A program made the translations under genes and the position numbers. A DNA stretch of 56,442 bases, taken from Verrucomicrobiales bacterium (GTDB lineage Bacteria > Verrucomicrobiota > Verrucomicrobiia > Verrucomicrobiales > DEV007). Positions 7,172 through 53,181 of this stretch are shown in pieces. The notes under the pieces are model-generated. The model made no database searches, had not been told where the DNA came from, and saw nothing but the letters and a program-made list of their open reading frames with translations. Where the stretch lies: positions 1 through 56,442 of the forward strand of contig JAAZZC010000239.1 in NCBI GenBank assembly GCA_014239335.1. The letters are read 5' to 3'. Within the stretch, counting starts at the first letter, position 1. Each line of letters starts with the position of its first letter.

Positions 7172-7204
7172 GGCGTTAAGGTGAAATTCTTCAGACTGTT
7201 TCCA

Positions 7205-29951: not shown

Positions 29952-31118
29952 ATGACCCTTGAAAATTTACTCAATAACGAAGAAGAACGGATCCGGCGTT
30001 TTCCAATAGCAAAGGAAAAGATCTTCTTAGGCCATGCCGCAGTCACTGCTCTGCCTCTTTGTGCCGCTGAAGCGATGGCACAATACGCGCACTCTAGCAG
30101 TAAGGACCACCAAGAGTTTCCTGAATTCATTGAAACAATGAACGACACTAGGCGCTTAGCAGCAGACCTGATCGGAGCAAAAGCTTCAGAAATTGCTATT
30201 CTAGGCCCCACCTCATTAGGTCTTAGTCTATTTGCAAACGGAATCGACTGGAGAGCCGGTGACGAGGTCCTTTGCTATCAAGATGATTACCCAGCAAACG
30301 TTTACCCTTGGGTCGAACTTCAACGCAAAGGAGTCAAAACTAAATTCCTTGAACCAGAAGAATCAGGAACCATTACTCCTGAATTAGTCGAATCATCAAT
30401 TGGGCCCGCAACGCGACTCGTCGCACTGGCCAGTTGTCATTATCTTACAGGTTATCGGATCGACATTGACACAATAGGCAAGATGCTTAGGGAGCGTGGA
30501 ATTCTCTTTGCTTTGGACGGCATACAAACCTGTGGCGCCTTTCCTACACCCGTACAAAATGTTGATTTCATGAGCTGCGATGCCCATAAGTGGCTGCTAG
30601 GACCAATGGCGATAGGAATCGTTTATGTTAAGCAAGAAAACTTCGAAATGCTAAGGCCTACCCTGCTCGGAGCATGGAATGTTCATTCTCCAGACTATAT
30701 TACACAGGAAAAAATTAAATTTCACCCAACGGCCAGACGTTACGAGCCTGGCGTTTTAAATGCCTCCGGAATCGTGGGCTTTAAAGCGGCACTGGAACTT
30801 ATCAATGAATTTGGTATGAAAAATATTTCCTCGCAGCTTTTAAAGCTAAAATCTCATCTCATTAACAAATTAGAATCACTCGGATTCTCCATTAATGGGC
30901 CCAAAATTGGCAATAATGCTTCATCGATTACTACATTTAAGCCTTCAGAGGGAAATGCATTGGCAATATTCGATAAACTCACTAAAGCAGGAATTATATG
31001 CTCATGTAGAAAAGACCGCTCAGGTGAGCAATTCCTGCGATTTAGCCCTCATTTCTATAATACAGAAACAGAAATTGACCGTACTATAGAAATTTTAACA
31101 CTCGGCACCAATTCCTAG
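29952..31118 (+). CDS. Class V aminotransferase / cysteine desulfurase-like PLP enzyme
   Basis: FMSCDAHKWLLGP is the PLP-lysine context. The fold-type I pattern is present. Confidence 0.8.
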   Translation: MTLENLLNNEEERIRRFPIAKEKIFLGHAAVTALPLCAAEAMAQYAHSSSKDHQEFPEFIETMNDTRRLAADLIGAKASEIAILGPTSLGLSLFANGIDWRAGDEVLCYQDDYPANVYPWVELQRKGVKTKFLEPEESGTITPELVESSIGPATRLVALASCHYLTGYRIDIDTIGKMLRERGILFALDGIQTCGAFPTPVQNVDFMSCDAHKWLLGPMAIGIVYVKQENFEMLRPTLLGAWNVHSPDYITQEKIKFHPTARRYEPGVLNASGIVGFKAALELINEFGMKNISSQLLKLKSHLINKLESLGFSINGPKIGNNASSITTFKPSEGNALAIFDKLTKAGIICSCRKDRSGEQFLRFSPHFYNTETEIDRTIEILTLGTNS

Positions 31119-36987: not shown

Positions 36988-39900
36988 TTACTCCCCGGGA
37001 AATAGAAAATTGACGCGCATTCGGAAGAATTTTTTCGTGTGTAATTCACCTGCCTCATCGTTCCTGAGAGTTAATGTTTCCGTGCCATCTCCGTTATCAT
37101 TGGCGGATCCGATTTGGATTGTCATGGGGTGCCACGTTAATAGGTCTCTGGAGGTTTCAGCAATATAATTGAGATCTGCTGCGTTTTTCTGGCGACGGAA
37201 ACTAAAATAAAAGTGGCCCTCGGACATGGTAGTCGTCGGAAGACTTCCCGGTGGGTTCGGTACACGTGGATCGAGGCCGAAGGCGTATTTAAGAAGGTTA
37301 GAAGTGCCGTCGCTGTTCAGGTCGACCAAAGGTTTGCTGATCGACAAGTTGTTACGTTCTGCTTCGGTGAAGTATTGCGTTTGCCAGCTTTGGAAATCCA
37401 TCCCAAAGCTTGTGTTCGGCTTGCCCGGGTTACCGTGGAGTTCTGCGGAGATCCCCCACGCAAGCGAGTTGCCCCAGGAATCGATATCGGCAGCATTTGC
37501 GTCGCGGATGTGCAGTGAACGACCGCCGCCATCGGTGGCCGGATACCAATCACTGTCACCGTAGGCGAACTGCTGAATGACGTTCCCCGGCTCGTCGCGC
37601 AGATCTAATCGCTCACCGTTGTTGCGCAGGTTGGATCTTGGATATTCACCAACAACTGGTAAGGCTTGGCCGTATCGTGCTTCGAATGCAGTGCGATTGC
37701 GCACTGCTACGACATAGCCGCCAGCAGGGACCGTCGTACCGATCGGGAACGTGAACGAGATGCCGTCTTGAAAGTGTACGCCTCCCACATTAAGCGGATC
37801 AGTGCCAATGTTTTTGAACTCGATGAACTCGAACTCGTTGGGATCATTGCTCACCGCGAGTTCGGCTGGGGTGGTCGGTAATGCCGGATTATAGTGGATT
37901 TCGGTGATACGCAAAAACTCGGGTGGGGTCGGTCTTGTTATCGTGCTGGTGATCGTGAGATTGTAAGTGTCGAGCAAGTTGTCCTGAAAATCGTAGGTCT
38001 CCAGCGCGATCGCATTTGCGCCAGTCAAAAGCGGTAGACTCACCCGCCACGTGTCACCATTCAACCATTCTACGGCCAGCGGCGCATCGTTGCCGGCGAG
38101 CCGGAACTGGCGAATATTGATCCAACCCTTGCCTTCGATCACGGCCGAGGTGTCGGCGACAGAGAAGTTGTTTCCGCCGTTAGTGGTGACGCTGAACTCC
38201 ACGTCCGATGGTAATTGTGATAGCGCAAAGTTTCCGCGGGCGTTGATATATCCCGCCTGACTTCCAAAATTCTGGCTAACTAGGCTTCCATAGTGTGTCA
38301 GCCAAGTGCTCATATAAGTTGTGTTAAAAGTCGTGTTAACTAGATCCTGAACATGCCCCCAGTAGAGGCGCCTATACTTTGGAATGTTAATCACATCACT
38401 CAAGTTGCCACCACCGGGTAACATCGACGAGTTGATGCCAGAGTTAAACACGAAGTCCATGTCCCACGGGAGCGCTGTTACTCCACGGCCATTCTCTGGA
38501 ACATAGATACGGATATTATGGCGCAAACCGCCTTGAACAAAGGTGTCGCCGATTCCGCACAGCAAAGTCATCGCCGTGTATCGACACCACTCATCGACGT
38601 CCATCCACTCGCCGATCTCGCCTGCAAGCTGTGCAGCCGGCAAGTCGAACATCTTACAGAAATTGATCAGTCCGGAGTAGTCGTCTCGTCGCCGTCCGGT
38701 ACGGATCTCGAATGATGCGCGGGAATCTTCCTTACTGTCGCCTAGATCGCGCATGTCGGTACCCATGTGGGTAAATGGTATCGGCGGCTTAAATCCTTCC
38801 GTGCCACCGATACTCGACACCGGGTCGTAGGTAATATCTAGGTTGAATACACTCCCGTTGGAATCATTGGAAAACTGTGATTCGGTAAACAGCCCACCGT
38901 AACCGGCCATCAGCATCTGTGAGGTACCGGTGTAGGTATTACTGGGGCCGACCAAGTGGATCAGCTCGTCATACATGGATGGGATTCCGGCATGGTTGAA
39001 CATGTGCTTCACGAAAATTTCGTGCTGCTGCCGAGCGACTGGCGTGCGCGCCGAACGATCGATGCTCAGGCTGTCGTGTATACCGCGGAAGAGCTGATCA
39101 GCAGGCAGGCCGATGTTGAACCCGCGAAAGGAAGAGCCGTCGCGTGCCCGACCGGCGCCGCTACCGCGCAAGCGCACTCCAGCATTATAGAAAATCTCGC
39201 GGCGATTGTAAATTATGGCACCTCCGAGCCGTTCATTACTCATCAAATTGAGATTACTGAGCATGAAATTGCGGTCGCTGTCGAGCATGATCAAGCGTAC
39301 CTCCGGCACAGCGAGATTGGAGCCTTGACCGTTGTCGACTTGAATCAGGGCACGCGAATCTGGACCAGATTCAGGCGCAAACGACTGAATACCGAGCGCG
39401 TCGGCCGCTTCGATCCAGAACTGAATTACGGTCCCAGACGGTTGACCAGTAAGCAGTCCACGCCCATGCCCGTCGTTATCTACAAAGAAATTAAAGGGCT
39501 GGACTGGGCCTTCGTCAAAGCGCGCCTTCAGCACGAAGTCACCTAACCCATCGGGATCCGATACATCTGCCGTGATTTCAATAAACTCGTTAGCCGCTGG
39601 CACTGGCGGGTCATGACGCAGGTTCCTGAATGTCGGCCCAATGTTGGTCTCGAGCTGCGAGTTCACAGCACCTGGACTGCCACAGTTTTCCGGTCGGTCG
39701 AGCTGCGTCGTGCGCGCGAGCCGCTGATAGTAGCAGCGCGAATTGATCTGATTCGAGCCAGCCAGCCAGCGCGCGAGGAACGTGACCTCATAGATCTGGC
39801 CACTGAAGATCTGGCTATTGTTGATAAAAGTGGTCTCGAGATGATTGTGACGTGTGTCCGTCGCTCCCTTTGCGTTGAGGTGTAGGACATTGTTTCCGGG

Positions 39901-42630
39901 GTTGCCAGGTTCAGGGATGACGTTGCTGTGGCGGTGGTTGCCGAGGATGCGCCACTTGGTTGTGCCAGATGAGAACGACCCGTTCTGGATCAGTTCCTGC
40001 GCTGCACCATCAGGGTCACGCACCACGCTAACGTCGTCGATCAATACTTCGCCAGCACGCAACATACCAAGCCGGAACTCGTTCCAAGAAGTCAAGCCAT
40101 AGCTCTGTGATCCATTAGAGCGATAGCTAATTGTCTGCCACTGCGTCTTGTTAGACTCGTCACTCGCCGCCCATGCCTGTGGGTTGGAGTTGTCGGCATC
40201 CGGATCACGCAGTTCAAGACTTGAGCCGTTGCCGTCTGCGAGCGCCGACCAGCGACCGCCCTCAAAGTAGCGTACTTCATCGACCGGATTTTTGACACCA
40301 TCTTCGAGTCGGATGGTGTCGCTGGTATTGCTGAGCCGGTTGCGATAATTGCCAACGATTTTACCTGCAATCGATGGATATTTTGTGACTAGCGATGTGG
40401 GGTTTTCCGCGACGACCAGGAAATCGCCCGCGCTGATACTCGTGCCCTCCGGGAAGTTGAAATCGATTCCACCGTTGATCGACCATCCCGTAATATCGAT
40501 CGACGCATTGCCTTTGTTGAATAGCTCAATCCACTCCTCGTCGCGTTCGGTGATCGGCACTGTTGGAACTGCGGTTAAGGCCACCAGTTCTGCACCGAAA
40601 ATGATATCACTACTGGCGGGAAACTGCTGATGAACCTCGACCGAAAGGCGGTTACTTCCGACGACCAGGCTCCCGGGTGGAATAGCAAAGGGCCCTTGGT
40701 AACGAGCGTTCGGCACACCCGGGCTAGCGGTCGTCGAAACATCGATCGCTCCATTCGGCAAGTTGAACCGATACACCTCGACTCCATTAAGGAAAAAGAT
40801 CGCTCCATCATCAATGATGTGCCGCAGTTGAAGTGCACGGAGTTTGTCCTTCTGCTTAGCGTCCAGAACGAACTCGGTCTCGAAGTAATAGGTTACAATG
40901 GAATTGGTAGCGGAAGGCGCAAAGTTAGTCCTCAGTGGCTCTGGCATAGACGCAGGCGCCGTTTCTGATCCGAGCAGTGCCGGCCCGCTAAACCAGTTGA
41001 AATTGTCGACCAAGTGCACGTCCCGTTCCCAATTAGAACCAAGATCGGCACCGCTTTCATTGTATCGCCACGTCGCCTCAATCGGGATCAGTGTGAGCAT
41101 TGAACTGATTCCATCGCTGCCCGGATCTTCGCGGAAATGATACATGATTTCGTTAATTACTATGTCTGTGTTGAAGTCGAAGCGGTTCGGTGCGCCGAAG
41201 GTCAGTTCGTCAGGCACTAACATTTTTCCATCATGCTCGGCCGAGAAAGCACATGGTAAGTCTTTGGCGCGTGCCGCGTGGATAAGGAACTCCTTCCCGG
41301 GCGAATACAGGAAAAGGCGGTCACCTTTGGCCGGGCGAAAGCCGAGCTCAGCTTCGTCGATGACCAGAAAACCACCAGCGGAGATCATGGTTGTGTTGGA
41401 AATCGTGTAACTCGTATCCACCGTGCCACGTGATCCAAGCACATAGTTCCCCACATCGATGTTCTCTTCCCCGGTATTGGCGAATTCGATCTGGAAGCTG
41501 GCGTTACCAGCACCGGTGATCTCGCTGATGACGAGGGAAACTTCCTCTATAGGCAAGATCTTCTGAGTCATATTCAGGTCGGCGCCGAAAATGATGTCGC
41601 TGCTGCCGCTGCTCTGCTGGTGAACTTCTACGGAAAAGCGGTTGGTTCCCGTGACGAGGGCATTGGTGGGGAGGATAATCGGCCCTTCGTAAGTAGCGTT
41701 GCTCACGCTGCCTCCAGACGTCGTCGATGCGTCCACTGCACCGGGGTCCATGTTGAAGCGCGGCAAAATCTCCGTGCCATTGATATAGAACACTGCACCG
41801 TCGTCAATCACATGGCGCAAAATCAAGCTATCAATATTCGCAACCTGCTCTGCCGTCAGTTCGAAGTCGATTTCGAAGTAGTAGGTGAGGATGTCATTTT
41901 CTCTCGGATTTACGAAAATCGTCACGAGTGTTTCCGGTAACGACGCGGCGGTGGTTTCGAAACCGAGCAGTCCGGCGCCCGTCGGCCAAGCAGGGTGCGC
42001 GTTAAGGGCCCAATCCTCGCCGAGGTCGGCTCCGCTCTCATTGAATCGCCAAGTGGAATCGATTCCAAAAATTTGTGTTGGCGGACCAATTATTACTTCG
42101 ATAGAAAAATTCTGTGCTCCCGGCGTGCCGCCGACTTCGGCGCTGGCACGCCAGTTTGCCGGGTCGGCACTGCCCGTGCCTTCGTCTGCCTTGGCCAAGG
42201 TCGCTCCCGAACCGTCGGCTCCGACTGGCCACACTCCGCTGTCGCCAAATTCAATCTCGTTCATCAGTCGCCCCGAATTGTTATGCAAGCGCAGACGCTC
42301 GCCATCGTTGTTGAGTTGTCCTTCCCACGGGCCGAGGGCGACCGCCCCGAGCTCGGCGGGATTACCGCTGATCAGCAGATAGCCTCCAGCGGGAACCACA
42401 GTTCCAGCGGGAATCACGTAGTCGACTCCTCCTGCAAGGCGCCAGTGCGAAACATCGACGTTGATGGCCATCTGGTTGTGCAATTCGATCCACTCCGGCT
42501 TTTCCGCCAATTCGGGGTGATATTGAATTTCATTGAACACCACGACGCTGTCGGCATGTAATTTTTCCGGCAAGGCAACGATGCTCATTATGCCACAAAG
42601 CAAGAGCCAGCGTGTGTAAGGAGAAATCAT
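36988..42630 (-). CDS. Giant secreted multidomain protein (about 1,880 aa): lamin-tail domains (LTD), a duplicated galactose-binding-like module, a CotH kinase-family domain, a C-terminal LTD and a C-terminal beta-sandwich module
   Basis: Signal peptide, then LTD signatures (VVFNEIQYHP...EWIELHN...VSHWRL; EEWIELFNKGNASIDITGWSI; ITEIHYNP...FEFIEFKN). CotH-like region: IIYNRREIFYNAGVRLRGSG ... HNIRIYVP...WDMDF. The tail contains DLNSDGTSNLLKYAFGLDP and ends in ...FFRMRV. Confidence 0.85.
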   Translation of the reverse strand: MISPYTRWLLLCGIMSIVALPEKLHADSVVVFNEIQYHPELAEKPEWIELHNQMAINVDVSHWRLAGGVDYVIPAGTVVPAGGYLLISGNPAELGAVALGPWEGQLNNDGERLRLHNNSGRLMNEIEFGDSGVWPVGADGSGATLAKADEGTGSADPANWRASAEVGGTPGAQNFSIEVIIGPPTQIFGIDSTWRFNESGADLGEDWALNAHPAWPTGAGLLGFETTAASLPETLVTIFVNPRENDILTYYFEIDFELTAEQVANIDSLILRHVIDDGAVFYINGTEILPRFNMDPGAVDASTTSGGSVSNATYEGPIILPTNALVTGTNRFSVEVHQQSSGSSDIIFGADLNMTQKILPIEEVSLVISEITGAGNASFQIEFANTGEENIDVGNYVLGSRGTVDTSYTISNTTMISAGGFLVIDEAELGFRPAKGDRLFLYSPGKEFLIHAARAKDLPCAFSAEHDGKMLVPDELTFGAPNRFDFNTDIVINEIMYHFREDPGSDGISSMLTLIPIEATWRYNESGADLGSNWERDVHLVDNFNWFSGPALLGSETAPASMPEPLRTNFAPSATNSIVTYYFETEFVLDAKQKDKLRALQLRHIIDDGAIFFLNGVEVYRFNLPNGAIDVSTTASPGVPNARYQGPFAIPPGSLVVGSNRLSVEVHQQFPASSDIIFGAELVALTAVPTVPITERDEEWIELFNKGNASIDITGWSINGGIDFNFPEGTSISAGDFLVVAENPTSLVTKYPSIAGKIVGNYRNRLSNTSDTIRLEDGVKNPVDEVRYFEGGRWSALADGNGSSLELRDPDADNSNPQAWAASDESNKTQWQTISYRSNGSQSYGLTSWNEFRLGMLRAGEVLIDDVSVVRDPDGAAQELIQNGSFSSGTTKWRILGNHRHSNVIPEPGNPGNNVLHLNAKGATDTRHNHLETTFINNSQIFSGQIYEVTFLARWLAGSNQINSRCYYQRLARTTQLDRPENCGSPGAVNSQLETNIGPTFRNLRHDPPVPAANEFIEITADVSDPDGLGDFVLKARFDEGPVQPFNFFVDNDGHGRGLLTGQPSGTVIQFWIEAADALGIQSFAPESGPDSRALIQVDNGQGSNLAVPEVRLIMLDSDRNFMLSNLNLMSNERLGGAIIYNRREIFYNAGVRLRGSGAGRARDGSSFRGFNIGLPADQLFRGIHDSLSIDRSARTPVARQQHEIFVKHMFNHAGIPSMYDELIHLVGPSNTYTGTSQMLMAGYGGLFTESQFSNDSNGSVFNLDITYDPVSSIGGTEGFKPPIPFTHMGTDMRDLGDSKEDSRASFEIRTGRRRDDYSGLINFCKMFDLPAAQLAGEIGEWMDVDEWCRYTAMTLLCGIGDTFVQGGLRHNIRIYVPENGRGVTALPWDMDFVFNSGINSSMLPGGGNLSDVINIPKYRRLYWGHVQDLVNTTFNTTYMSTWLTHYGSLVSQNFGSQAGYINARGNFALSQLPSDVEFSVTTNGGNNFSVADTSAVIEGKGWINIRQFRLAGNDAPLAVEWLNGDTWRVSLPLLTGANAIALETYDFQDNLLDTYNLTITSTITRPTPPEFLRITEIHYNPALPTTPAELAVSNDPNEFEFIEFKNIGTDPLNVGGVHFQDGISFTFPIGTTVPAGGYVVAVRNRTAFEARYGQALPVVGEYPRSNLRNNGERLDLRDEPGNVIQQFAYGDSDWYPATDGGGRSLHIRDANAADIDSWGNSLAWGISAELHGNPGKPNTSFGMDFQSWQTQYFTEAERNNLSISKPLVDLNSDGTSNLLKYAFGLDPRVPNPPGSLPTTTMSEGHFYFSFRRQKNAADLNYIAETSRDLLTWHPMTIQIGSANDNGDGTETLTLRNDEAGELHTKKFFRMRVNFLFPGE

Positions 42631-42639
42631 CAATGAGGA

Positions 42640-44061
42640 CTAGGGAAAGAATTCCCGCAGTCGATAGAACTGAAACCGCTTACCGGGTTCCACTGAACCC
42701 TGCACGGTGGTAGTTGTTCCGGCATTACCCTGCACACTGTCATCAATTTCTTCCCAACCGCCGGGTTGTCCGCCGGGCAGCAGGCTGGTGGAAATATCCA
42801 ACGCATAAAACTTTCCGGGTAGGGAATTAAAAGTGATTGCCACTTCTCCACTGTTAGGATCGTAAACAATGTCTGTGACCACCAGGGGCACTGCCAGAAC
42901 TTGACCGTAGATTTCCAGCTCATCAATGCAGATATTTGGATCCGAAACCAACACCCTAAGACCAGTGGCTATTACAGCGCCGTTTATACCGTATTGATGC
43001 CTAAGTGACAATGATGATGTGTAGTTGATAGTACCAATGGTGTTCCAGTCATCGGTAGTGGCTGGATCGGTCGCGGTGGTGATTTGCAGGGTGTATATCC
43101 CGTTACTGCGGTCACTATATGTGCCGGTGTTATCCCGTCCGAAGGCGATGGAATCAATCGTGAACTGACCACCGAGATCAACCCCGATATAAGGGTTCGG
43201 GTCTCCGGCCGGAAAGTTGGCGAGCCAGCTATTGCTGTTACCGTAGACCCCGTCGTTGACATTGGTGATGAGGTGGACACCAGCGCCATATTCGCTGGAA
43301 CCGAATGCTGTGCCCCCCTGTGCCAGGTTGTCAGGAACCGCGGCGTTAAAAAAGTCACCATCATTGCCGTCCCAAGTGAACTCGTAACCTGCTGTGGGAG
43401 CAAGTTCCATCGGCAGCGGTGGTTCTTGAACCTCGCCTGGGCTTGCGTAGAGTTCAATCTCATCGATGCAAGCTCCACTACCTAATCCATTTCCTGGAGC
43501 TATGATCCGCACTCCGGTTGCACTGACCGGATCGAAGTTGTAGCGGTGCCGAAGGTGGGGGCTTTGGTAGTTGGTCCCGGCAACGGGAGCGCCGTAGTTC
43601 AACGTGCCGATAGTGTTCCACCCAGTGTTTGCGTCCCCGGTGTCAGGCGTATTCTCATCGGGGTTCGGCATGCGGGTGAACTGCAGGGTATAAATGCCCT
43701 GGTTGCGATCACTATATGTTCCAGTATTATCCCGTCCGAAGGCGATGCTGGAGATGGTCATCTCCGTCGTCCCGAGATTGATTCCGCAGAAAGAATTCAA
43801 CGAGTTGCCGATCCAGCTGTTACCGTTGCCATAAATACCGTCGTTGAGGTTGGGAATGTCGTGGGATGGCCTGAACGCGCCGTTGTTAATCAGGTCGAGC
43901 GCAAAGGCAGTGCCTGTCAGTGCCAGATTATCTGGCGCAAAATCGCCGGACTCTTCGACCAGCACCAGATTACCAGGTCCATCAAGAATCACTTCAGACC
44001 GCAAACACGACATGAAGCCCATCATTACAGTGATTACGAGGGCGTTGAAATGCGTAGACAT
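42640..44061 (-). CDS. Secreted (possibly lipoprotein) protein with two discoidin/F5-8-type-C-like modules and a C-terminal beta-sandwich module
   Basis: The internal repeat DNLA..GTAF...NDG.YGN.NSW......G..LG....I.SIAFGRDNTGTYSDR..GIYTLQ...CIDE.E.Y occurs twice (nt 43447-43938 and 42904-43338). I preferred the ATG at 44061 (MSTHFNALVITVMMGFMSC). It ends 9 nt upstream of the CotH gene. Confidence 0.75.
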   Translation of the reverse strand: MSTHFNALVITVMMGFMSCLRSEVILDGPGNLVLVEESGDFAPDNLALTGTAFALDLINNGAFRPSHDIPNLNDGIYGNGNSWIGNSLNSFCGINLGTTEMTISSIAFGRDNTGTYSDRNQGIYTLQFTRMPNPDENTPDTGDANTGWNTIGTLNYGAPVAGTNYQSPHLRHRYNFDPVSATGVRIIAPGNGLGSGACIDEIELYASPGEVQEPPLPMELAPTAGYEFTWDGNDGDFFNAAVPDNLAQGGTAFGSSEYGAGVHLITNVNDGVYGNSNSWLANFPAGDPNPYIGVDLGGQFTIDSIAFGRDNTGTYSDRSNGIYTLQITTATDPATTDDWNTIGTINYTSSLSLRHQYGINGAVIATGLRVLVSDPNICIDELEIYGQVLAVPLVVTDIVYDPNSGEVAITFNSLPGKFYALDISTSLLPGGQPGGWEEIDDSVQGNAGTTTTVQGSVEPGKRFQFYRLREFFP

Positions 44062-44099
44062 AAAAAAATTATAAATAGATAATTGCCCAGAAAACAGCA

Positions 44100-44157
44100 A
44101 AAACCGATAATAATTTCATACCCATAGAATGGGCTAGAATCATTATAATTGGCAAGC
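44100..44157. repeat. 58-bp direct repeat, copy B (upstream of the discoidin gene)
   Basis: 54 of 58 positions identical to 36741-36798. Contains a duplicated ATGAAATTATTATCGGTTTT (MKLLSV...) start. Confidence 0.9.
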
Positions 44158-44373: not shown

Positions 44374-46335
44374 TTATTTGCCCCGAAAGGCTTTACCGTT
44401 CCGGTAATTGCTAAGCGCGGCCCGGAGACCGGCATCATTAGCACCTACTGATTGAGCATAATGAAGCGCTCTCGTTGTAGTTTCGATTGCTCCCTTAAAG
44501 TCACCAGTTTCAGCGAGTGCTGCTGCCAGTGTAGACAGTGTTGTGTGGTTTTTTCCACCATCTGCTTTAATGATTGGCGTAATCAGTTTGACTGCTTCCT
44601 CACCGTTCCGCAATTCTGAATCAGGATGCGTAGAAAGAAGCCAAGCTAGATTATTTGCGGGGAACATCCAACCGGGACGGACTTGAAGTGATTTTCGATA
44701 ATGCGTGACTGCATCGTGGCCCTTTCCTGTGGCCTGCAAGGCATTGCCAAGTTGAAAATGCGCTACAGCATCAGTCGGTTTCATTCGGACACAAGCACGA
44801 AAATGATTGAGGCTTTCTACCAAGTTACCACTTCCGGCTTCGGCTATGCCAAGATTAAAACGGAAATCAGGATTGTCCTTATAAACAGAAAGTGCAGCTT
44901 TGAGATGATTGCGTGCCGGTCGGATCTGATTATACTTTAAAAGCAGGATACCGGCACTGCGGTGATAGTCAGCTTCGTTCTCAGTAGTAGCCGATATTCC
45001 GGCAAAGACCCGAACGGCTTGTTCTAAATTATTTTCATCGAGCAAAAGCCTTCCAAGGTAGAGGCGGGTTTCTTCTGACTCGAAGCGTAGAAGATAATCT
45101 TTGAGATAGCGTTTGCGCAGTGATGGGTTTCCGGCCCTAGCAAATGATTCTGCTAAACGAATCGCCTGTGGAGGGAAAAGGTCCGAAGCCCAGCGTCCAG
45201 GGAAAGGCACAGCTGCATCACGGGCTTCAATTTCCGGTTTGCTCAGTAGAGCTACGTCATCAAGAAGCGTGAAAAGAGGAACGTGACCTTTGTAAATTGC
45301 TGCGACCCGACCTTCTTTATCCAATAAGAAGCTAGTAGGGATAGGCAGAGGTTGCTGTAGCTCCACAAATGTTCGATGAAAAATGTCCAACACATCGAGA
45401 ATTTCCGGTGACGCCTTTCCACTGTTAAATGGAAATGTTATGGGAGTAGTCTTCCGCTGGTTTTCGTCTAGAAGGCCAACATTTAGAGCAACTATATCTA
45501 ACCCAGCTTCACGGATTTTTTTCTCGTGTTTAGTCCACTCGCTAATTTCAGCGACGCATGGAGCACAGCTTTCGGACCAGAGATTAATCAGTTTAGGAGA
45601 ATTCCCCGTATCGGGGATACCTTCTAATCGTGGCAATGGAATGCGACCGATGAGCCAGGTCCGTGTAGTATCATTTGATTCATTAAAAGTAATTTGGCTA
45701 GTCTTTATCGCTAAATTTTCTGCCGGGGGTTTCCACAACACTGCCTGCCCTTTGCCTTGTTCTAATGTGTGGTATTGATGCATTTTTAAACCACTGATCT
45801 TTTCGACTTTTCCGCCTGGCCAGTAAACTGTTGCACTTGAAATAGTGGCCTTATTTCCCAAGCCAAAATGAAGCCACTTACTCGATTGGGCAAGAAAACC
45901 ATCCCCTGCGCGGACGGTTTTACTACGCAACCTGTTATCACCTAAGTCTAGAACAACTCTAGCACCAACGGCATCTTTATTGCTTGAGGTGCCACTCAAA
46001 CGCAACGCCAGCCAGTCACCTCCACGACTGCTGTTGCGTAGGAGCCTTACGCGGGGAGCATTGCGGTTGCTAACCCAGAGGTCCTGGCTTCCGTCGAAGT
46101 CCCAGTCGCAAACTGCCACTGCCCGCCCATCATCATATAGGCTTAGGCCGGTAGCAGCTGAAGCATCAGTGAAGCGCCCATCCCTGGTATTAAGAAAGAA
46201 GCAATTACTTTCGTTCCCGCTGAAAGAACGTCCTTGGCCGATTAATTCTGTCAGTGCTTTCCACCCGAGTTTGTAGCGATCACTTGCTTTAATATCAGCC
46301 AGTGCGGCTGAAAGATTTTCAGGAGATTGAGACAC
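44374..46335 (-). CDS. C-terminal segment of a CRTAC1-like protein: last FG-GAP blade, ASPIC/UnbV domain, TlpA-like thioredoxin domain (CAPC) and TPR repeats
   Basis: CDWDFDGSQDLWVSNRNAPRVRLLRN, AVGARVVL...GDGFLAQSS.WLHFGLG (UnbV_ASPIC-like), LINLWSESCAPCVAEISEW, and TPR-like repeats at the C-terminus. It lies in frame with 46357-48192 across a single TGA. Confidence 0.75.
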   Translation of the reverse strand: MSQSPENLSAALADIKASDRYKLGWKALTELIGQGRSFSGNESNCFFLNTRDGRFTDASAATGLSLYDDGRAVAVCDWDFDGSQDLWVSNRNAPRVRLLRNSSRGGDWLALRLSGTSSNKDAVGARVVLDLGDNRLRSKTVRAGDGFLAQSSKWLHFGLGNKATISSATVYWPGGKVEKISGLKMHQYHTLEQGKGQAVLWKPPAENLAIKTSQITFNESNDTTRTWLIGRIPLPRLEGIPDTGNSPKLINLWSESCAPCVAEISEWTKHEKKIREAGLDIVALNVGLLDENQRKTTPITFPFNSGKASPEILDVLDIFHRTFVELQQPLPIPTSFLLDKEGRVAAIYKGHVPLFTLLDDVALLSKPEIEARDAAVPFPGRWASDLFPPQAIRLAESFARAGNPSLRKRYLKDYLLRFESEETRLYLGRLLLDENNLEQAVRVFAGISATTENEADYHRSAGILLLKYNQIRPARNHLKAALSVYKDNPDFRFNLGIAEAGSGNLVESLNHFRACVRMKPTDAVAHFQLGNALQATGKGHDAVTHYRKSLQVRPGWMFPANNLAWLLSTHPDSELRNGEEAVKLITPIIKADGGKNHTTLSTLAAALAETGDFKGAIETTTRALHYAQSVGANDAGLRAALSNYRNGKAFRGK

Positions 46336-46343
46336 GACCTGTC
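46331..46343 (-). other. Small hairpin 13 nt downstream of the in-frame UGA at 46357-46359 (GACA-GGUCG-UGUC); possible minimal SECIS
   Basis: 4-bp stem with a GGUCG loop. The E. coli fdhF SECIS apical loop is GGUC at nearly the same distance from UGA. The stem is short and no energy was computed. Confidence 0.3.
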
Positions 46344-46356
46344 GCCAATAGAAACT

Positions 46357-48192
46357 TCACAAGTCCCCAGTGTCCTCGGTTGTGATGAATCCATTCGCAA
46401 CGTAAATGTCCTCCCAACCATCATTGTTGAGATCCACAAACTTCGCGCCCCATGCCCACCGCGCCATTGTTACCGCAGCATTTTCACTGACGTCGGTGAA
46501 TCCGGACCCAATATTTGCAAATAGGCTGTTGCCACGAGCATGACGGCGAAATGCCTCAATTTCTTGTTCTATTCCAGAACGAAATTTGCGCTGGTAAGTG
46601 ATGCGGTTCCCAGCAGAAGAGAACATGTTGCTTATATAAGGATCGGGGCGGCCGTCATTATTGTAATCACCCCAGGTGATACTCATCCCGGCCGACATAT
46701 CTTCAACTCCTTGACTGCCCGCGACGTCAATGAATTTTCCATTACGATTAAGGTAGAGGTTATTGCGTCCGAAATCGTTAGCCACATAAAGGTCGGAGTC
46801 CCCATCTAGATCAAAGTCCGCCCAGGAACAGGCATAGCTGTATCGGGTATTATTAACATCCAACCCACACTCTACTGTCGCATCGGAGAAGTGCCAATTT
46901 CCATCGTTGCGAATCAGCAGGTTAGCCCCGCCGTTGTTGGCATCATGATAGGGAATCGGTTGACCGAGGATTCCCTCAGAATTATTCAATTCGCGTGCAG
47001 GGTTCCGACCACAGAAATACAGATCAAGATCTCCGTCCAAATCGTAGTCAGCCGCTGCGAGAGAATGCAGGTTAGAAGGGGCCTTGGTTTCTGTTCGCTT
47101 CGTAAAAATACCTGCACCGTTATTTTCCATCAGCATCCAATACCATCCTTGTGCTAGCGCAAGATCCTGATCCCCGTCATTGTCCAGATCGACAAAGAGA
47201 ACCGCACGAGTTAGCTCCATCCAATCAACGCCCGATTCAGCTGATACATCCTTCAATGTGCCATTTAAATTACGTACATACAGTTTGTTGGGTAAGCCTC
47301 CCTGCTGGCAGACATAAATGTCATCAAGTCCATCCCCATTGGCATCACCAAGAGAGATTCCCTGAAGACCGTTCACATCAATTCCAAAATCACCCTGAAG
47401 ACGTGAGCGCCAGTGATCAATGCCCAGCATGAGTTGATCTTGAAATGAAGGGGCCTCCTTGAAAACGCTTGCCGTAACATCATCGAAATTTAGTCCTCCA
47501 CCCTGCTTCGGAAGGATCTCTTCGTAATCGATCAGTTTTATTCCAAGAAGTTCGGGCGGGTTTCCGGATCTCCAGCTACAATGCCATCGGGCATTTTGTT
47601 GAGCTGTGCCGTGAGCAGTTTTACCACTCGCAAAATAAATAATCTTAGTGTTGAACATACCTTCCGGTGATTTGGAAGGAGTGATGTTGTATGTCTTTAA
47701 CTTCAGTTTATCTTCTGTCCCGCTCGGGTAAATTGCTCGCAAAGAAGTGAGGGCTTGGCTAAGTGGTAACTTCGTCGAGCTGGTACCCTTACCAGAACGC
47801 CATACGCTTAGCAGTTCATCGGTATAGCTTTCCTGTAGATCGGAAGGGCGCAAAGGCTGCACCAATATTTCTGGCAAGCTTGCTTCCGGATCTAAAAGTT
47901 CTTCGAGGCGTTGATGAGCCGCATCGCTCACCACTTCGGAATCCCATCCCTCATCAGCCGCCGCATCTGTCCGCCGCAGAATAACTTCAATTGCTGCATC
48001 GCGCGGCCCTTTGTCAGGCAGGTATGCTTTTGTTAGTAGTTCGTTTTGATTAGGGAAGCGTAATTCTTTTTCCGCTGAGTTGGTTTTAGCACTTTTTTTA
48101 TCACAACTTGATAACAAGTGTGATATAAGAATTAGGAAAACCATCAGACGGACTGAAAGCCGCGTCGTTTGTTTTCGAAATAAAATATTCAT
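46357..48192 (-). CDS. N-terminal segment of a CRTAC1-like lipoprotein: six FG-GAP/VCBS calcium-binding blades
   Basis: Lipobox LLSS-C. Six DxDxDG-type motifs are present (GDANGDGLDD, VDLDNDGDQD, ADYDLDGDLD, ADFDLDGDSD, GDYNNDGRPD, VDLNNDGWED). It ends ...TEDTGDL-TGA. Confidence 0.8.
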   Translation of the reverse strand: MNILFRKQTTRLSVRLMVFLILISHLLSSCDKKSAKTNSAEKELRFPNQNELLTKAYLPDKGPRDAAIEVILRRTDAAADEGWDSEVVSDAAHQRLEELLDPEASLPEILVQPLRPSDLQESYTDELLSVWRSGKGTSSTKLPLSQALTSLRAIYPSGTEDKLKLKTYNITPSKSPEGMFNTKIIYFASGKTAHGTAQQNARWHCSWRSGNPPELLGIKLIDYEEILPKQGGGLNFDDVTASVFKEAPSFQDQLMLGIDHWRSRLQGDFGIDVNGLQGISLGDANGDGLDDIYVCQQGGLPNKLYVRNLNGTLKDVSAESGVDWMELTRAVLFVDLDNDGDQDLALAQGWYWMLMENNGAGIFTKRTETKAPSNLHSLAAADYDLDGDLDLYFCGRNPARELNNSEGILGQPIPYHDANNGGANLLIRNDGNWHFSDATVECGLDVNNTRYSYACSWADFDLDGDSDLYVANDFGRNNLYLNRNGKFIDVAGSQGVEDMSAGMSITWGDYNNDGRPDPYISNMFSSAGNRITYQRKFRSGIEQEIEAFRRHARGNSLFANIGSGFTDVSENAAVTMARWAWGAKFVDLNNDGWEDIYVANGFITTEDTGDL

Positions 48193-48315
48193 GCGGACAA
48201 ATGAAGAAAATCACTTAGATCCCTTCCTAACTACAGTTCTCAAATATAATATATATTTAACACTAGGATATTAAAAACAAGCAGAAACATGATTTGCATT
48301 CCTCCAAAAACTGAA

Positions 48316-51300
48316 ATGAGAAAGAGATGGGTATTATCCTTAATTTTTTTTGCGGGAGCATTGATGTCTTCAGCTCAGGCAGAGCTCATTGCGTTTTACA
48401 CATTCGATGATGCGGGGGCCCCTTTTGCGGACAGCTCCGGCCAAGGGAACGACATTTCTGGCACTGTAGGAACAGCCCCGACCTGGGGATCGGACATTGG
48501 TTTCGGTGATACAGGAGCCTATGATTTTGCCGGCGGCACTCTCACGGTTCCAATCGACATTAATGCGAGCGTAGTACCTGACATGACTTGGGGAGCATGG
48601 GTCCGCACTGACAACACGAGCCCCGGACTGCGCAAGATCATGGGACATGATAATGGTGCTTGGGACCGGACAATTGGTCTCGACAGTCGCAATGGCCAAT
48701 TCCGTTACACCTCATTCACCGGTTTTGGCCGCCCAGTAGTTGGAGACCTTCCGGGACCCGAAAATACGGAGGACTGGACATTCATTGCCGCCAGTTACGA
48801 CTCAGCGGCTGGCACTGTTTCGGTTTATGTGGATTTGGACGCATCCTCTATAGATGATGAACTGGTAGCAGTGACCGAAACGGCCAGATGGAACAATGGT
48901 CAGGGCACTTTTGCCATAGGTGGGCTAAGGCCTGACAACACGGCCGAGCTCTGGGACGGCACCATCGATAACGTTTTTGTTTACGATGAAGTCCTATCAA
49001 TAGAACAGATCACCGCACTGAGAAACAATTTCGAGGTTCCGCAGCAACCGGTCATTCATTCCTTCGTTGTTAGCCCGGGATTCATTAACAGCGGAGAAAG
49101 CGCAAAGCTTTCATGGGAAGTCGAAGGTGCTGAAAATATCTCGATTCAACCGACCTCATTGCAAAACGCAAGAGCAAAAGGGTCCCTACACATTTTTCCA
49201 GCCGAAACAAAAACCTACACTTTAACCGCAAGCAATGGTGCTGGGAATGTTCAGGCAGAAGTCACTATTGGAGTTGACGCCGAAGCGGTCGAGCCAAGCA
49301 TCACCGAGTTTCAGGCAAGAAATAATGGCACGCTCACCGATAAGGATGGGAACACTCCGGACTGGATTGAGATCCACAACCCCAATCCATTCACTTTTGA
49401 TATAGGAGGCTACGTGCTAGAAGATGAGAATCAGAGATGGGTATTTCCTGCCGGGACGCGAATGCAGCGTTATAGTTATCTTGTTGTTTTTGCTTCAGGA
49501 CTGGATGAGCCTTTGCCGGCAGGCGACGAGCTTAATACAAATTTTAAGCTCTCGTCTTCAGGTGAAAATCTGAGACTGCTTGCTCCCGACGGTAAAACAA
49601 TACTCAGTGATTTTTCTGATTTGCCTATACAGGAACGTGGCATTTCCTACGGAACCGATTCTAACAATGGGGGAAAGGGGTACCTAAATCCGCCAACGCC
49701 GGGAGAACCTAACGGGAAGGTTCTGGATGGTCGTGTTAAAGATACCAAGTTCGATGTCGACCGCGGTTTTTACGATGGGCCGTTTACTGTAAATGTTTCT
49801 TGTGCCACTCCGGGAACATCCGTCAGTTACACTATCGATGGATCCATGCCAACCCCTGAGCACGGGACCAGAATTCCCCCCAATGATGAATTTTCATTGG
49901 GACTGGCGGCCATTGAGATTTCCACTACCACAGTCTTGCGTGCCATTGCTTTTAAAACGGGTTCACTGGCGAGCAACGTTGATACGCAAACTTATATTTT
50001 CCCCAAGGACGTTATCAGGCAACCCGAAAATCCTAGAGGCTTCCCCACAAGTTGGGGTGAATTCACCGGCGTTAACGGTGGAAGTCAAGGACAACCGGTA
50101 CCTGCCGATTACGAAATGAACCCTGCAATCGTGAATGCTAATCCTGAAGGTCTCAAACAGGCTTTAATGGAATTACCAACAATGTCCATTGTTGCCGATC
50201 CTGAGGATCTTTTCGGCCGAAACGGAATTCTCTCGAACCCCTTTGGTAATGTGAATGGCATTGGAGTTCACAATCAGAGACCCTTCATTGCAGATCGTCT
50301 CGCATCAATGGAGTGGATTCAACCAGACGGTGAGCGTGAAATCCAAGTGAATTGCGGAGTACGTTTGGTTGGAGGCTGGAGCCGACACTATCGGGCCTCT
50401 CCAAAGAAGTCGTTGCGTTTGATTTTTCGCAGTCAATTTGGTCCTACTAAACTGAATTTTCCCATTTTCGGAGAAGATGAAATTGATGAGTTTGATAAGA
50501 TTCAGCTACGAGCCACTTTCAGTGATGGCTGGGTGGACAATGCTCACCCGGCCCAATTTCTTCGAGATCCCTTTATGCGTGAAACTTATCTGGCCATGGG
50601 ACAGCCAGGTTCACGTAGCAACTTTGTTCATCTCTATCTTAACGGTCTTTACTGGGGCATCTACAACCCCAGTGAAAGACCGGACGGTAATTATGCTGCT
50701 AGCCATTTCGGAGGTTCAGAGAGTGATTACGACGCAGTGAAACACGAAGGACTGCGTGGTCCTGGTCAGGCTGTCACGGACTCTTTTGAAGTCATCGACG
50801 GGACATCTGAGCGCTGGAAAGAAGCGTTGGCTGTGAGTGGCCGGGACATCAAAGATTCGGCGGTCTATGCCGAGTTCAAAAAATACGTCGATGTGATTTC
50901 CTTGGCAGATTACGTCCTTGTGAATTCGTTCCTTGCGAATATGGATTGGCCTGGAAAGAACTGGTATGCTTTTGGGCGCAGGGACGGTTCTGATGGCGGG
51001 TTTAAGTTTTCACCCTGGGATTCTGAATACTCTTTGCATAACTTGAACGGGAACCGAGTAGATATTAGCGGCAGCAACACACCTGCTCGCTTTTACAGCC
51101 GCGTTCGTAGCAATCCGGAATTCCGGCTCTTGTTCGCTGACAGAGTTCACAAGCATGCCTTTAACGGAGGCTCACTCACGGTTGAATCGATGGTCAAACG
51201 ATACACTGAGATGGCAAATCACATAGAACCAGCAATTGATGCTGAAGCCGCCCGCTGGGGAGACAATCGACACACGCGTCAGGGCAGACGTGATTATAGA

Positions 51301-53181
51301 AAATCAAATTGGCTCTCGACCCGTAATGCTGTTCTCAATAATTTTCTCAAGAATCGACCTCCAATTGCAATCTCGCAGTACCGTGCTGCTGGCCTCTATC
51401 CTTCAGTGAATGCACCCGAATTTAACCAGCACGGTGGATTTTTGGATGACGGCAATGACCTGACTTTGGATACTTCCTCAAAAGGCACGATCTTTTATAC
51501 ATTGGACGGCAATGACCCCCGTCTTTTTACCAGCGAGAATGATACTATCACAGCTCTCATTGAGGATGAGGCTGAAAAATCAGTGATTTTTGTTGCCAAT
51601 GCAGCCGATGAGCCTCCAGTGAATTGGAATGCCCTTGGCTTTGATCACAGTGGCTGGCTTAAGGGAACTCTCGGTGCCGGTTATGAAAAGTCAGGTAACG
51701 GACGCTACGATCCGCTGATCGATGAATTATTTGATTTTGAATCGCTGGCGACCTCTTCAAATCAGGAGACGATCTATATGCTTACGGATTTCTGGATAGA
51801 TGATCCTTCAGTTTTTAATCTGCTCACCCTCAAAGTCCGTTACGATGATGGTTTTGTTGCATATATTAATGGAATCGAAGTTGCCCGGGAAAATATTCCA
51901 GGTTCTCCCGGCGAATTGGTTCCATGGGACGAAAATGCCTTATCCAATCACTCAGACAATCTCGCTGAACAGTTCACTGCCGTTGACGCAACCGCGGGTG
52001 TTCCACATTTGCGTGCCGGCAATAACATTCTTGCGATACAAGCCCTCAACAGTGGGAGGGCCAGTAGTGATTTTCTGATATGGCCAAAGCTCGAAGCTGC
52101 AACTGTGGGAGACGGTCCAGGGCCTTCGGCCTTGAGTTATGGCGGATCCCTTAACCTAGAAAGTTCAGCTACTGTGAAGGCTCGGTTACTATCATCATCG
52201 GGTCAATGGTCCGCTCTCACGGAAGCAACTTTTACAGTCGCTGCTGAAGCCGCAAATGTAAGTAACCTGGTAATTTCCAAAATCCATTATCATCCGCTTG
52301 AACCCAGCGAAGAAGAAATCGCGGCAGGACATGATCAGGAGAGTGATTTTGAATACATAGAGCTTTTTAATATCAGCAAGAAAACGGTTTCACTTTCGGG
52401 ATTTAATTTTACAAATGGTATAGAGTTTCAATTTGATCCGAGCATTGTTTCTGAAATAGAACCTGGAGGCCGTGCTTTATTGGTTTCAGATATTGCGGCA
52501 TTTCAGTTTCGTTATGGGAACGGAATTAAAATTTTGGGTGAGTTCAATGCCGGAAAACTCAACAATGATGGTGAGGCATTGTCTCTTAATGGACCTGATG
52601 AATCCGAGATCTGGAATTTTGAATATAATGACTCTGAGGCTTGGCCTGATTCTCCTGACGGTGGAGGAACTGCGCTTGTGTTGATCGATCCAGAGAATCC
52701 AAAAGAGAATCAAGCTTTGAGTTTCCCTGAGAATTGGCGGCCATCGTCTGGAAATGAAGGACTCCCGGGCAGAGATGATAGAGTTTCGTTTGCAGTTTGG
52801 CTTTCAAATCAACCCAATCCTGACCCTAACGCCGACCCAGACGGAGATGGCTTGAATCAATTATTAGCATTTTCTATTGGGCTTTCCGAAAAATTAGATC
52901 CAAGTGCGTTCCTTCCTAACGTTTCTCTAGAATCTCTGCAAGTTGGAGAAACTGAGGAAATATACCCTGTAATTTCGATTCGCCAGCGCACCGGTATTGC
53001 GGACGTGAAGTTTGAAATTGAGAGTTCAACTGATCTTTTGAATTGGAGTCCTGCAAATGGCGTATTGATCTTGACCAAAGATTTGAAAAATCCCACAATG
53101 TTAAGGACTTACCGTGATTCGAAGCCATACAAAGATAATGTTAATCGGTTCTTTCGGGTAAGAGTATCCAGCAACTTATGA
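48316..53181 (+). CDS. Giant secreted multidomain protein (about 1,620 aa): LamG-like module, Ig-like domain, LTD, CHB_HEX_C/Fn3-associated-like domains, CotH kinase-family domain, galactose-binding-like module, LTD and a C-terminal beta-sandwich module
   Basis: Signal peptide MRKRWVLSLIFFAGALMSSAQA. LamG pattern (FYTFDD...SGQGND...WGAWVRT...VYVDLD...WDGTIDNVFVY). LTD (DWIEIHNPNPFTFDIGGYVL; FEYIELFNISKKTVSLSGF). CotH-like (VNCGVRLVGGWSRHY, VHLYLNGLYWGIYN, SPWDSEYSL). The tail ends in ...FFRVRVSSNL. Confidence 0.85.
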   Translation: MRKRWVLSLIFFAGALMSSAQAELIAFYTFDDAGAPFADSSGQGNDISGTVGTAPTWGSDIGFGDTGAYDFAGGTLTVPIDINASVVPDMTWGAWVRTDNTSPGLRKIMGHDNGAWDRTIGLDSRNGQFRYTSFTGFGRPVVGDLPGPENTEDWTFIAASYDSAAGTVSVYVDLDASSIDDELVAVTETARWNNGQGTFAIGGLRPDNTAELWDGTIDNVFVYDEVLSIEQITALRNNFEVPQQPVIHSFVVSPGFINSGESAKLSWEVEGAENISIQPTSLQNARAKGSLHIFPAETKTYTLTASNGAGNVQAEVTIGVDAEAVEPSITEFQARNNGTLTDKDGNTPDWIEIHNPNPFTFDIGGYVLEDENQRWVFPAGTRMQRYSYLVVFASGLDEPLPAGDELNTNFKLSSSGENLRLLAPDGKTILSDFSDLPIQERGISYGTDSNNGGKGYLNPPTPGEPNGKVLDGRVKDTKFDVDRGFYDGPFTVNVSCATPGTSVSYTIDGSMPTPEHGTRIPPNDEFSLGLAAIEISTTTVLRAIAFKTGSLASNVDTQTYIFPKDVIRQPENPRGFPTSWGEFTGVNGGSQGQPVPADYEMNPAIVNANPEGLKQALMELPTMSIVADPEDLFGRNGILSNPFGNVNGIGVHNQRPFIADRLASMEWIQPDGEREIQVNCGVRLVGGWSRHYRASPKKSLRLIFRSQFGPTKLNFPIFGEDEIDEFDKIQLRATFSDGWVDNAHPAQFLRDPFMRETYLAMGQPGSRSNFVHLYLNGLYWGIYNPSERPDGNYAASHFGGSESDYDAVKHEGLRGPGQAVTDSFEVIDGTSERWKEALAVSGRDIKDSAVYAEFKKYVDVISLADYVLVNSFLANMDWPGKNWYAFGRRDGSDGGFKFSPWDSEYSLHNLNGNRVDISGSNTPARFYSRVRSNPEFRLLFADRVHKHAFNGGSLTVESMVKRYTEMANHIEPAIDAEAARWGDNRHTRQGRRDYRKSNWLSTRNAVLNNFLKNRPPIAISQYRAAGLYPSVNAPEFNQHGGFLDDGNDLTLDTSSKGTIFYTLDGNDPRLFTSENDTITALIEDEAEKSVIFVANAADEPPVNWNALGFDHSGWLKGTLGAGYEKSGNGRYDPLIDELFDFESLATSSNQETIYMLTDFWIDDPSVFNLLTLKVRYDDGFVAYINGIEVARENIPGSPGELVPWDENALSNHSDNLAEQFTAVDATAGVPHLRAGNNILAIQALNSGRASSDFLIWPKLEAATVGDGPGPSALSYGGSLNLESSATVKARLLSSSGQWSALTEATFTVAAEAANVSNLVISKIHYHPLEPSEEEIAAGHDQESDFEYIELFNISKKTVSLSGFNFTNGIEFQFDPSIVSEIEPGGRALLVSDIAAFQFRYGNGIKILGEFNAGKLNNDGEALSLNGPDESEIWNFEYNDSEAWPDSPDGGGTALVLIDPENPKENQALSFPENWRPSSGNEGLPGRDDRVSFAVWLSNQPNPDPNADPDGDGLNQLLAFSIGLSEKLDPSAFLPNVSLESLQVGETEEIYPVISIRQRTGIADVKFEIESSTDLLNWSPANGVLILTKDLKNPTMLRTYRDSKPYKDNVNRFFRVRVSSNL
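48427..48991 (+). repeat. LamG-module DNA repeat, copy 1
   Basis: Ungapped alignment with 53312-53876 (offset 4885). My hand count found about 44 mismatches in 565 nt (about 92% identity), with perfect runs above 40 nt. Confidence 0.9.

Follow-up and report, generated by a model that had tools for sequence, protein, structure and literature searches.

A predicted selenoprotein gene combining an FG-GAP beta-propeller, a UnbV/ASPIC domain and a TlpA-like CxxC domain in a Verrucomicrobiales contig

The gene at 44374-48192 and its domains

The window considered here is the whole 56,442-nucleotide stretch of contig JAAZZC010000239.1 (assembly GCA_014239335.1) from a Verrucomicrobiales bacterium. 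Its minus strand carries, at 44374..48192, what is predicted to be a single selenoprotein gene of 1,272 sense codons plus a TAA, otherwise read as two open reading frames (ORFs), 46357-48192 and 44374-46335. The frame opens with ATG at 48192 and runs through 611 codons, with the tail ...FITTEDTGDL, to an in-frame TGA at 46357..46359, which the comparison of aligned codons marks as a predicted selenocysteine (Sec), residue 612. Past this TGA the frame continues unbroken as SFYWRQVVSQSPENL... for 660 further codons; the peptide directly after it reads SFYWRQV-V(GTG)SQSPENL, and the only next stop is the TAA at 44374-44376. The statement in the initial annotation that the upstream ORF ends GDL-TGA and that the same frame runs into the downstream ORF is borne out on the minus strand, as is its division of the propeller, the TGA being preceded by six DxDxDG-type motifs and followed by one (CDWDFDGSQD). 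A genome-wide reassignment of TGA (code 4 or 25) was considered and ruled out, seven of 32 ordinary window ORFs ending in TGA.

The predicted product is a multidomain protein encoded entirely on the minus strand. At its N-terminus, a signal peptide with an L-S-S-C lipobox (48103..48192) was read from the translation, with Cys30 (48103-48105; LLSS-C30) as the predicted lipidation site, and from this lipoprotein-type signal the protein is predicted to be exported. An FG-GAP beta-propeller, recognized by Pfam and by fold matching, occupies residues ~270-720 (46033..47385); its limits are approximate, and it spans the TGA. Pfam FG-GAP_3 (PF13517) matches the upstream ORF with an E-value of 1.8e-35, together with FG-GAP, and FG-GAP_3 also matches residues 41-88 of the downstream ORF (E 1.7e-5). 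After the TGA, the order of Pfam matches is an FG-GAP_3 repeat, UnbV_ASPIC, AhpC-TSA/Redoxin and TPR. Also downstream of the TGA lies Cys664 (46201..46203; GNESN-C-FFLN), which co-occurrence marks as a candidate partner or resolving cysteine for Sec612 (see below). The UnbV_ASPIC domain (PF07593, E 3.2e-16) covers residues 741-808 (45769..45972), and a TlpA/ResA-like thioredoxin-fold domain covers residues 863-965 (45298..45606). The latter is recognized by AhpC-TSA (27.2 bits, cut-off 26) and Redoxin, gives weak matches to the NCBIfam models ResA and TlpA, and contains the motif C876-A-P-C879 (45556-45567). The C-terminal TPR array at residues ~1039-1241 (44470..45078) is matched by several Pfam TPR families, e.g., TPR_2 (E 3e-15).

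Murine CRTAC1 (9etn) was the only sequence match in the PDB (E 1.5e-16). An AlphaFold (AF2) model of a homologue that carries Cys at the Sec position, P0013 (1,184 residues; predicted local distance difference test 91.2, predicted template modelling score 0.92), gave 9etn_A as its top fold match over the propeller and UnbV part (E 4e-24, template modelling score 0.74). The redoxin part of the model matched the TlpA/ResA structures 4txv, 1jfu and 2f9s, and its C-terminus matched TPR proteins. In this model, the Sec-equivalent position is the first residue of a helix (CSFFWRQVV) directly after a propeller strand, and the equivalent of Cys664 starts the first strand of the next blade, after a two-helix insert.

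Conservation of the TGA and of the hairpin that follows it

Protein relatives were taken from a 5.8-billion-protein collection, and the DNA of relatives from one genome per species. The collection holds many full-length relatives of 1,000-1,450 residues, and 17 of 119 database homologues stop exactly at the TGA column, at ~700-840 residues, all ending ...DL like the window ORF. At the DNA level, the aligned codon was TGA in all 37 Sec-type loci, each from a different species-level genome, and never TAA or TAG; in every one of them the frame continues directly with SF[FY]WRQVV, with zero spacing. These genomes comprise about 14 Planctomycetota, about 18 Verrucomicrobiota (including Roseibacillus, Akkermansiaceae and Verrucomicrobiales), four Acidobacteriota and one unclassified bacterium, and the closest GTDB representative genome is 58% identical. 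Furthermore, an exhaustive HMMER search was run on 1.84 billion representatives of 50%-identity clusters, and the best 150 matches were considered. Among these best 150, 134 representatives were shorter than 900 residues, and 132 of the 134 end ...DL at the TGA column. To judge from these clusters, the short form is the rule among the closest relatives, across well over a hundred lineages differing by more than 50%.

Between the UGA and the first possible restart, the codons vary synonymously (AGT/AGC, TTC/TTT, CGA/CGG/CGC/CGT/AGG) while the peptide is kept, which indicates that the codons after the UGA are translated. This bears directly on the possibility of two real genes, in which the TGA is a true stop and the downstream gene starts at the GTG eight codons on. 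Gene callers annotate the family in this manner in well over a hundred protein clusters, and a GTG does stand at codon +8; however, it is the second Val of the conserved WRQVV and part of the hairpin described below, and the seven codons before it are those conserved as peptide. The frame is always kept with zero spacing, and full-length relatives are contiguous. In addition, the upstream piece would be a propeller without its last blade, and the downstream piece has no signal peptide yet carries a periplasmic-type TlpA-like domain. Relatives were also checked for a true 6+1 split, and none was found, the same in-frame TGA being kept and followed by the same peptide. A pair of separate genes is therefore highly improbable, and the single gene of about 1,270 codons proposed in the initial annotation holds.

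A lone in-frame stop in an otherwise intact gene looks like a fresh mutation when one sequence is considered, and a fresh pseudogene was among the options raised initially. This option did not survive the comparison, with the same TGA present in 37 other species-level genomes from three phyla and implied in ~130 distinct 50%-identity clusters. The base itself, for which verification had been advised, proved identical in three independent metagenome assemblies: contigs of three independent marine metagenome runs, from three studies, agree with 46100-46600 at every base. The TGA is also covered by RNA-derived contigs, at 46265-46429 (0 differences) and 46345-46518, and in the RNA-derived contig of one strain a synonymous change lies six codons upstream while the TGA is kept. 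The TGA region is transcribed, although DNA carry-over in the RNA libraries is possible. A recent nonsense mutation or a sequencing error can thus be given practically no credence, and the comparison of relatives refutes the pseudogene and the two-gene reading alike.

The UGA is followed by a hairpin that resembles a Sec insertion sequence (SECIS). The initial annotation described it as GACA-GGUCG-UGUC, 13 nucleotides after the UGA; this structure is present in the window, but the hairpin of the family as a whole begins at 11 nucleotides. In the window, the SECIS-type hairpin extends over 46326..46349 on the minus strand, with a lower stem AUUGG/UCAAU, a bulged C and an upper stem GACA/UGUC, the apical loop GGUCG lying at 46335-46339 and the equivalent of the family core hairpin, placed by the alignment of TGA genes, at 46329-46345. 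The window copy lacks part of the family outer stem, and its lower stem was obtained from RNAfold. In the alignment of 38 TGA genes, the family hairpin measures 17 nucleotides, GCGRCA-GGUCG-UGUCGC, and starts 11 nucleotides after the UGA. Pairing holds in 97.4% of its cells across the 38 genes, compensatory double changes occur at three of the six pairs, and its covariation score was reached by none of 500 shuffles. RNAalifold predicted the same helix from the alignment.

The hairpin is encoded within the codons for W-R-Q-V-V-S, and these codons are synonymously constrained: 35 of 38 genes use GTC for Val+7, 33 of 38 use GTG for Val+8, and TCG accounts for 29 of the 31 Ser codons at +9. At Ser+11, an internal control, TCT, TCC, TCA and TCG occur with nearly equal frequency. 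In nine relatives the Sec column is Ser, Ala, Asp or Glu; they have the same or a near-identical peptide (WRQVV in seven) written with other codons, and in these nine non-Sec, non-Cys relatives the hairpin is weak or absent, with 0 to -6.3 kcal/mol versus a mean of -7.3 kcal/mol in Sec genes. Taken together, the synonymous constraint and the weak or absent hairpin in non-Sec relatives indicate that protein conservation alone does not explain the hairpin.

Two further observations concern the same stretch. Of 38 Sec genes, 29 have TTG as the Leu codon preceding the UGA, versus one of 13 non-Sec or Cys relatives, which could be a context effect or merely reflect differing genome composition. A narrow peak in contig depth, ~35-40 bases wide, appears in metagenome runs X1-X3, where many contigs match only 46327-46365; it marks the conserved UGA-plus-SECIS stretch that related genes share, and the motif could serve as a DNA probe for the gene family in metagenomes.

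The published bacterial SECIS (bSECIS) model provides a frame for these structures. It allows a loop of 3-9 nucleotides with G in the first two loop positions, an upper stem of 4-16 base pairs, a UGA-to-loop distance of 16-37 nucleotides and a minimum free energy of at most -7.5 kcal/mol (PMC13188914, including Fig. 2A). The geometry of the family hairpin lies within these ranges, with the five-nucleotide loop GGUCG, 17 nucleotides from UGA to loop and a stem of six base pairs; in the window, the stem consists of four base pairs plus the lower stem of five. For the family 17-mers, folding energies extend from -1.2 to -10.0 kcal/mol with a mean of -7.3, most of them lying between -7.3 and -10.0 kcal/mol.

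Several observations on the window nevertheless weigh against decoding of this UGA as Sec. Its hairpin folds at -6.0 kcal/mol over 45 nucleotides, above the bSECIS limit, with z = 0.27 and 114 of 200 shuffles folding at least as well; the value of -9.2 kcal/mol over 60 nucleotides includes an unrelated second hairpin. A TCT in place of the family TCG creates a C-U mismatch that breaks one outer pair. Furthermore, selA, selB, selC and selD were found neither in the 56-kb window nor in the fetched loci, to which the search was limited, and ARAGORN reported only a tRNA-Thr in the window and no tRNA-Sec in the 37 loci. Rfam gave no SECIS match at gathering thresholds on the whole window, nor at E up to 10 on 46200-46450, a result of little weight. 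By itself the window hairpin proves nothing, and its significance derives entirely from the comparison with 37 other genes. With an unaltered loop, the usual spacing from the UGA and 660 intact downstream codons, the window copy is regarded as functional, although insertion may be less efficient.

The weak window hairpin and the lack of Sec machinery in the window and fetched loci would also fit a UGA that is read through without Sec, by a near-cognate tRNA with the hairpin as stimulator, or that acts mainly as a regulated terminator, yielding the 611-residue fragment and some full-length protein. A short product is, moreover, to be expected whenever Sec insertion fails. Read-through does not account for the exclusive use of TGA, never TAA or TAG, nor for the replacement of TGA in close relatives by Cys (TGC) and not by Trp or Arg. 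In position, size and GGUC loop, moreover, the hairpin matches a SelB-binding SECIS, and a second gene of the window has the same kind of conserved TGA, adjoining a Cys in a thioredoxin-like context. Decoding without Sec is accordingly very unlikely, and the comparative evidence makes it highly probable that 44374-48192 is one gene in which the UGA encodes Sec.

Cysteine forms and a possible extracytoplasmic redox relay

The residue aligned with the TGA, proposed initially as a means of telling Sec from a mutated codon, is Cys in the closest full-length relatives, and a conserved Trp, Arg or Gly is absent. Cys occupies the column in nine of the 102 full-length homologues that span it, including the two best-scoring ones (P0001 and P0004), and its codon is TGC, one step from TGA, in all four genes fetched. 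Across the full-length homologues the column holds D in 26, S in 24, E in 21 and C in nine, with a few G, A, M, Q, H, N, Y, R and T, so that Cys at the Sec column appears as a feature of the nearest relatives only. In a neighbour-joining tree, 27 of 30 complete Sec forms fall into one group that also contains a few C, S, D or A forms, and a Cys-rich group adjoins this main Sec group. A fossil hairpin is preserved, perfect, in the Cys forms P0004 (locus L086) and P0013 (L088) and is lost in P0001 (L087) and P0022 (L089). This contrast among Cys forms suggests repeated replacement of Sec by Cys, at different ages.

In the mechanism that the comparison of relatives makes highly probable, the hairpin inside the coding sequence directs the decoding of UGA612 as Sec. 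SelB with Sec-tRNA(Sec) would bind the hairpin while the ribosome stands on the UGA, as in E. coli fdhF, and translation would end after 611 residues when selenium or the machinery is limiting. The product would be a 1,272-residue exported lipoprotein consisting of an N-terminal domain, the propeller, UnbV/ASPIC, the TlpA/ResA-like CxxC domain and the TPR array. More tentatively, Sec612 would act outside the cytoplasm as a redox-active residue, paired with Cys664 in most members; the fused CxxC domain would keep this pair reduced, a membrane reductase of the DsbD/CcdA type would recharge the CxxC, and the TPR array may hold a protein partner or substrate.

The evidence for such a relay comes from co-occurrence, counted with kinship among the sequences ignored in an alignment that combines 30 complete Sec forms with 99 full-length forms of other types. 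The CxxC motif is intact in 30 of 30 Sec forms, versus ~22-32% Cys at these positions in forms with other residues (p ~3e-15), and Cys664 is present in 22 of 30 Sec forms, five of nine Cys forms and eight of 90 others (Fisher p ~3e-11). A CPHC-type motif tends to replace WCxxC in the Sec forms that lack Cys664. Two Sec subtypes can accordingly be seen, i.e., a majority with W-C-x-x-C and Cys664, and a minority with C-P/A-H-C and no Cys664 (L007, L011, L017, L028 and L031). That Sec is always accompanied by an intact CxxC domain points concretely to redox chemistry at a defined propeller site.

Other features of the same data tell against the relay. The p values above take no account of shared ancestry, and eight of the 30 Sec forms lack Cys664. 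Moreover, the Sec column has no conserved Cys in the wider family, where D, S and E dominate, which is unusual for a catalytic Sec; with this variability, the redox role may be wrong, or may be an innovation of a single clade. We therefore put forward an extracytoplasmic relay from Sec612 through Cys664, where present, and the TlpA-like CxxC to a membrane reductase as a tentative scheme, whose chance of being right falls slightly short of even.

The same column composition lends itself to another role, in which Sec is inserted but acts with Cys664 as a ligand of a soft metal (e.g., Cu, Hg or Zn), and the TlpA-like domain only keeps the ligands reduced. TlpA reduces the copper-site cysteines of ScoI and CoxB, and 4txv, one of the fold matches of the P0013 model, is a TlpA-CoxB mixed disulfide. 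Most non-Sec relatives have D, E or S, all possible ligands, at the Sec column, and the propeller carries DxDxDG motifs of the calcium type. In addition, several catalogued selenoproteins are metal binders (PMC13188914, Table 1). On the other side, when all columns with at least 40% Cys were checked, no further conserved Cys/His cluster was found around Sec612, and the Sec column holds G, A, M or Q in some relatives. The metal-ligand role is a serious alternative to the redox relay, although on balance an unlikely one.

If the redox relay is nonetheless the better description, the Sec clade may constitute a new class of extracytoplasmic selenoenzymes, with a catalytic Sec on a CRTAC1-like propeller that is recycled via Cys664 and the fused CxxC domain, a proposition that we consider possible rather than probable. 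It would place a Sec active site on a beta-propeller scaffold, a fold absent from the 119 catalogued prokaryotic selenoprotein families. To our knowledge, no enzymatic function is known for CRTAC1 or for bacterial ASPIC/UnbV proteins, and the relay, if true, would give this superfamily its first.

Window surroundings, novelty and known systems

Besides the main gene, the minus strand of the window carries at 1-786 a gene for a secreted protein that runs off the window start, with the other in-frame TGA mentioned in the initial annotation indeed present at 563-565. The frame reads ...IFIWAMDGHPMTCT-U-NNGVLDRESTF. More than 100 database homologues were found, all of 295 residues and all starting at VLDRESTF, four codons after the TGA, and all four fetched loci (L081 and L083-L085) keep the in-frame TGA, 69-79 codons upstream of it and a small hairpin. 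This hairpin reads UCGAC-CGUGA-GUCGA, and the UGGAC/GUCUA of the window is a double change that preserves pairing. Thioredoxin-like matches of the protein are weak (DUF255, E 0.002; NF041383, 17.5 bits versus a cut-off of 275). The gene likely encodes a selenoprotein, apparently an uncatalogued one, and a second gene with a conserved in-frame TGA supports Sec decoding in the lineage.

A third frame joined across a TGA, at 6941-7447 on the minus strand (TGA at 7205-7207), consists of two stretches of ~80-90 codons without domain matches, and probably represents two small genes or a chance junction. The class-V aminotransferase family includes cysteine desulfurases and selenocysteine lyases; a member (Aminotran_5, E 3e-55) is encoded at 29952-31118 on the plus strand, with no evidence here of a link to selenium. 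The neighbours of the main gene, at 36988-42633 (-), 42640-44100 (-), 48289-53181 (+) and 53207-55186 (+), encode very large secreted proteins, with CotH, lamin-tail, LamG and chitobiase-C domains, and a 486-residue protein without a Pfam match. Elsewhere the window is ordinary chromosome, with five sulfatases, BamA, LpxD, RuvB, threonine pathway genes and a G+C content of 46%, and its gene content fits a marine verrucomicrobium. All-against-all clustering of the ORFs in 38 loci revealed no conserved partner gene; the gene therefore appears to stand alone, and its context gives no functional hint.

An inventory of May 2026 lists 119 prokaryotic selenoprotein families, among which there is no FG-GAP, VCBS or UnbV_ASPIC family (PMC13188914, Table 1). 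No selenoprotein model of NCBIfam release 20 reaches its cut-off for the window protein. Within the main texts of the BSepDB, deep-Sep and GOS sources and of the 2022 and 2026 reviews, the terms FG-GAP, ASPIC and VCBS are absent, and so, in the three of these texts examined for them, are CRTAC and UnbV. A full-text literature search linking selenoproteins with FG-GAP or ASPIC gave nothing relevant, although a listing under another name is possible. In the source databases, the short pieces are named simply 'FG-GAP-like repeat-containing protein'.

On this evidence, the gene is predicted to represent a new selenoprotein family that uses the canonical recoding mechanism and is unusual in its fold, size, location and abundance, being abundant in marine Planctomycetota and Verrucomicrobiota. 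For annotation, this would mean that more than 100 sequence clusters are stored as 'FG-GAP repeat proteins' of ~550-830 residues cut at the Sec codon, with their C-terminal halves called as separate genes or lost, all of which a family model with Sec would repair. It would also add a large exported family of a non-thioredoxin fold to the selenoproteome of marine Planctomycetota, Verrucomicrobiota and Acidobacteriota, groups that are barely represented in current selenoprotein catalogues.

In E. coli fdhF, Sec is inserted at UGA140 with the help of a SECIS and in dependence on SelB. The likeness to this element claimed in the initial annotation was checked directly against E. coli K-12 fdhF and proved sound: with numbering from the U of UGA, each hairpin lies at positions 15-31, and the GGUC loop motif is common to the two. 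In fdhF, the UGA is followed by an 11-nucleotide spacer and the 17-nucleotide stem-loop GGUUGCA-GGUC-UGCACC, likewise inside the coding sequence, and it shares with the family hairpin the apex CA-GGUC-...-UG, in which the GGUC loop is closed by C-A/U-G pairs. The two differ in that the family stem is continuous over six base pairs with the five-nucleotide loop GGUCG, whereas fdhF has 3+3 base pairs, a bulged U and a four-nucleotide loop, with GGUC one position later (22 versus 21 in the family). The products are unrelated, a molybdoenzyme in the case of fdhF and an exported propeller in that of the window gene. Being very short, highly conserved and fdhF-like, the family SECIS may work in E. 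coli expression systems.

With CRTAC1, the window protein shares FG-GAP repeats with DxDxDG motifs followed by UnbV_ASPIC. However, Sec, a thioredoxin-fold domain and a TPR array are all missing from CRTAC1; the bacterial Sec forms possess in addition an N-terminal domain, a two-helix insert starting with Sec, a TlpA-like CxxC domain and TPRs. The proposed relay finds its nearest counterparts in TlpA/ResA reductases and in Neisseria PilB, in which a Trx-like domain is fused to MsrA/MsrB. As in these systems, an exported CxxC domain of the thioredoxin fold is joined to a domain with a redox-active residue, and DsbD/CcdA would supply the electrons; unlike in PilB-type fusions, the partner domain in the window protein is a beta-propeller, the reactive residue would be Sec, and the relay is suggested by co-occurrence only. 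Among catalogued selenoproteins, the ResA/TlpA-like families come closest, for instance NF041054, which scores 24.8 bits for the window protein versus a cut-off of 300 and also aligns with its TPR part (E 1.2e-5), so that a ResA-like plus TPR module and an extracytoplasmic location are common to both. In those families, Sec lies inside the thioredoxin motif, whereas in the window protein this motif is CxxC and the predicted Sec stands ~260 residues upstream, in the propeller.

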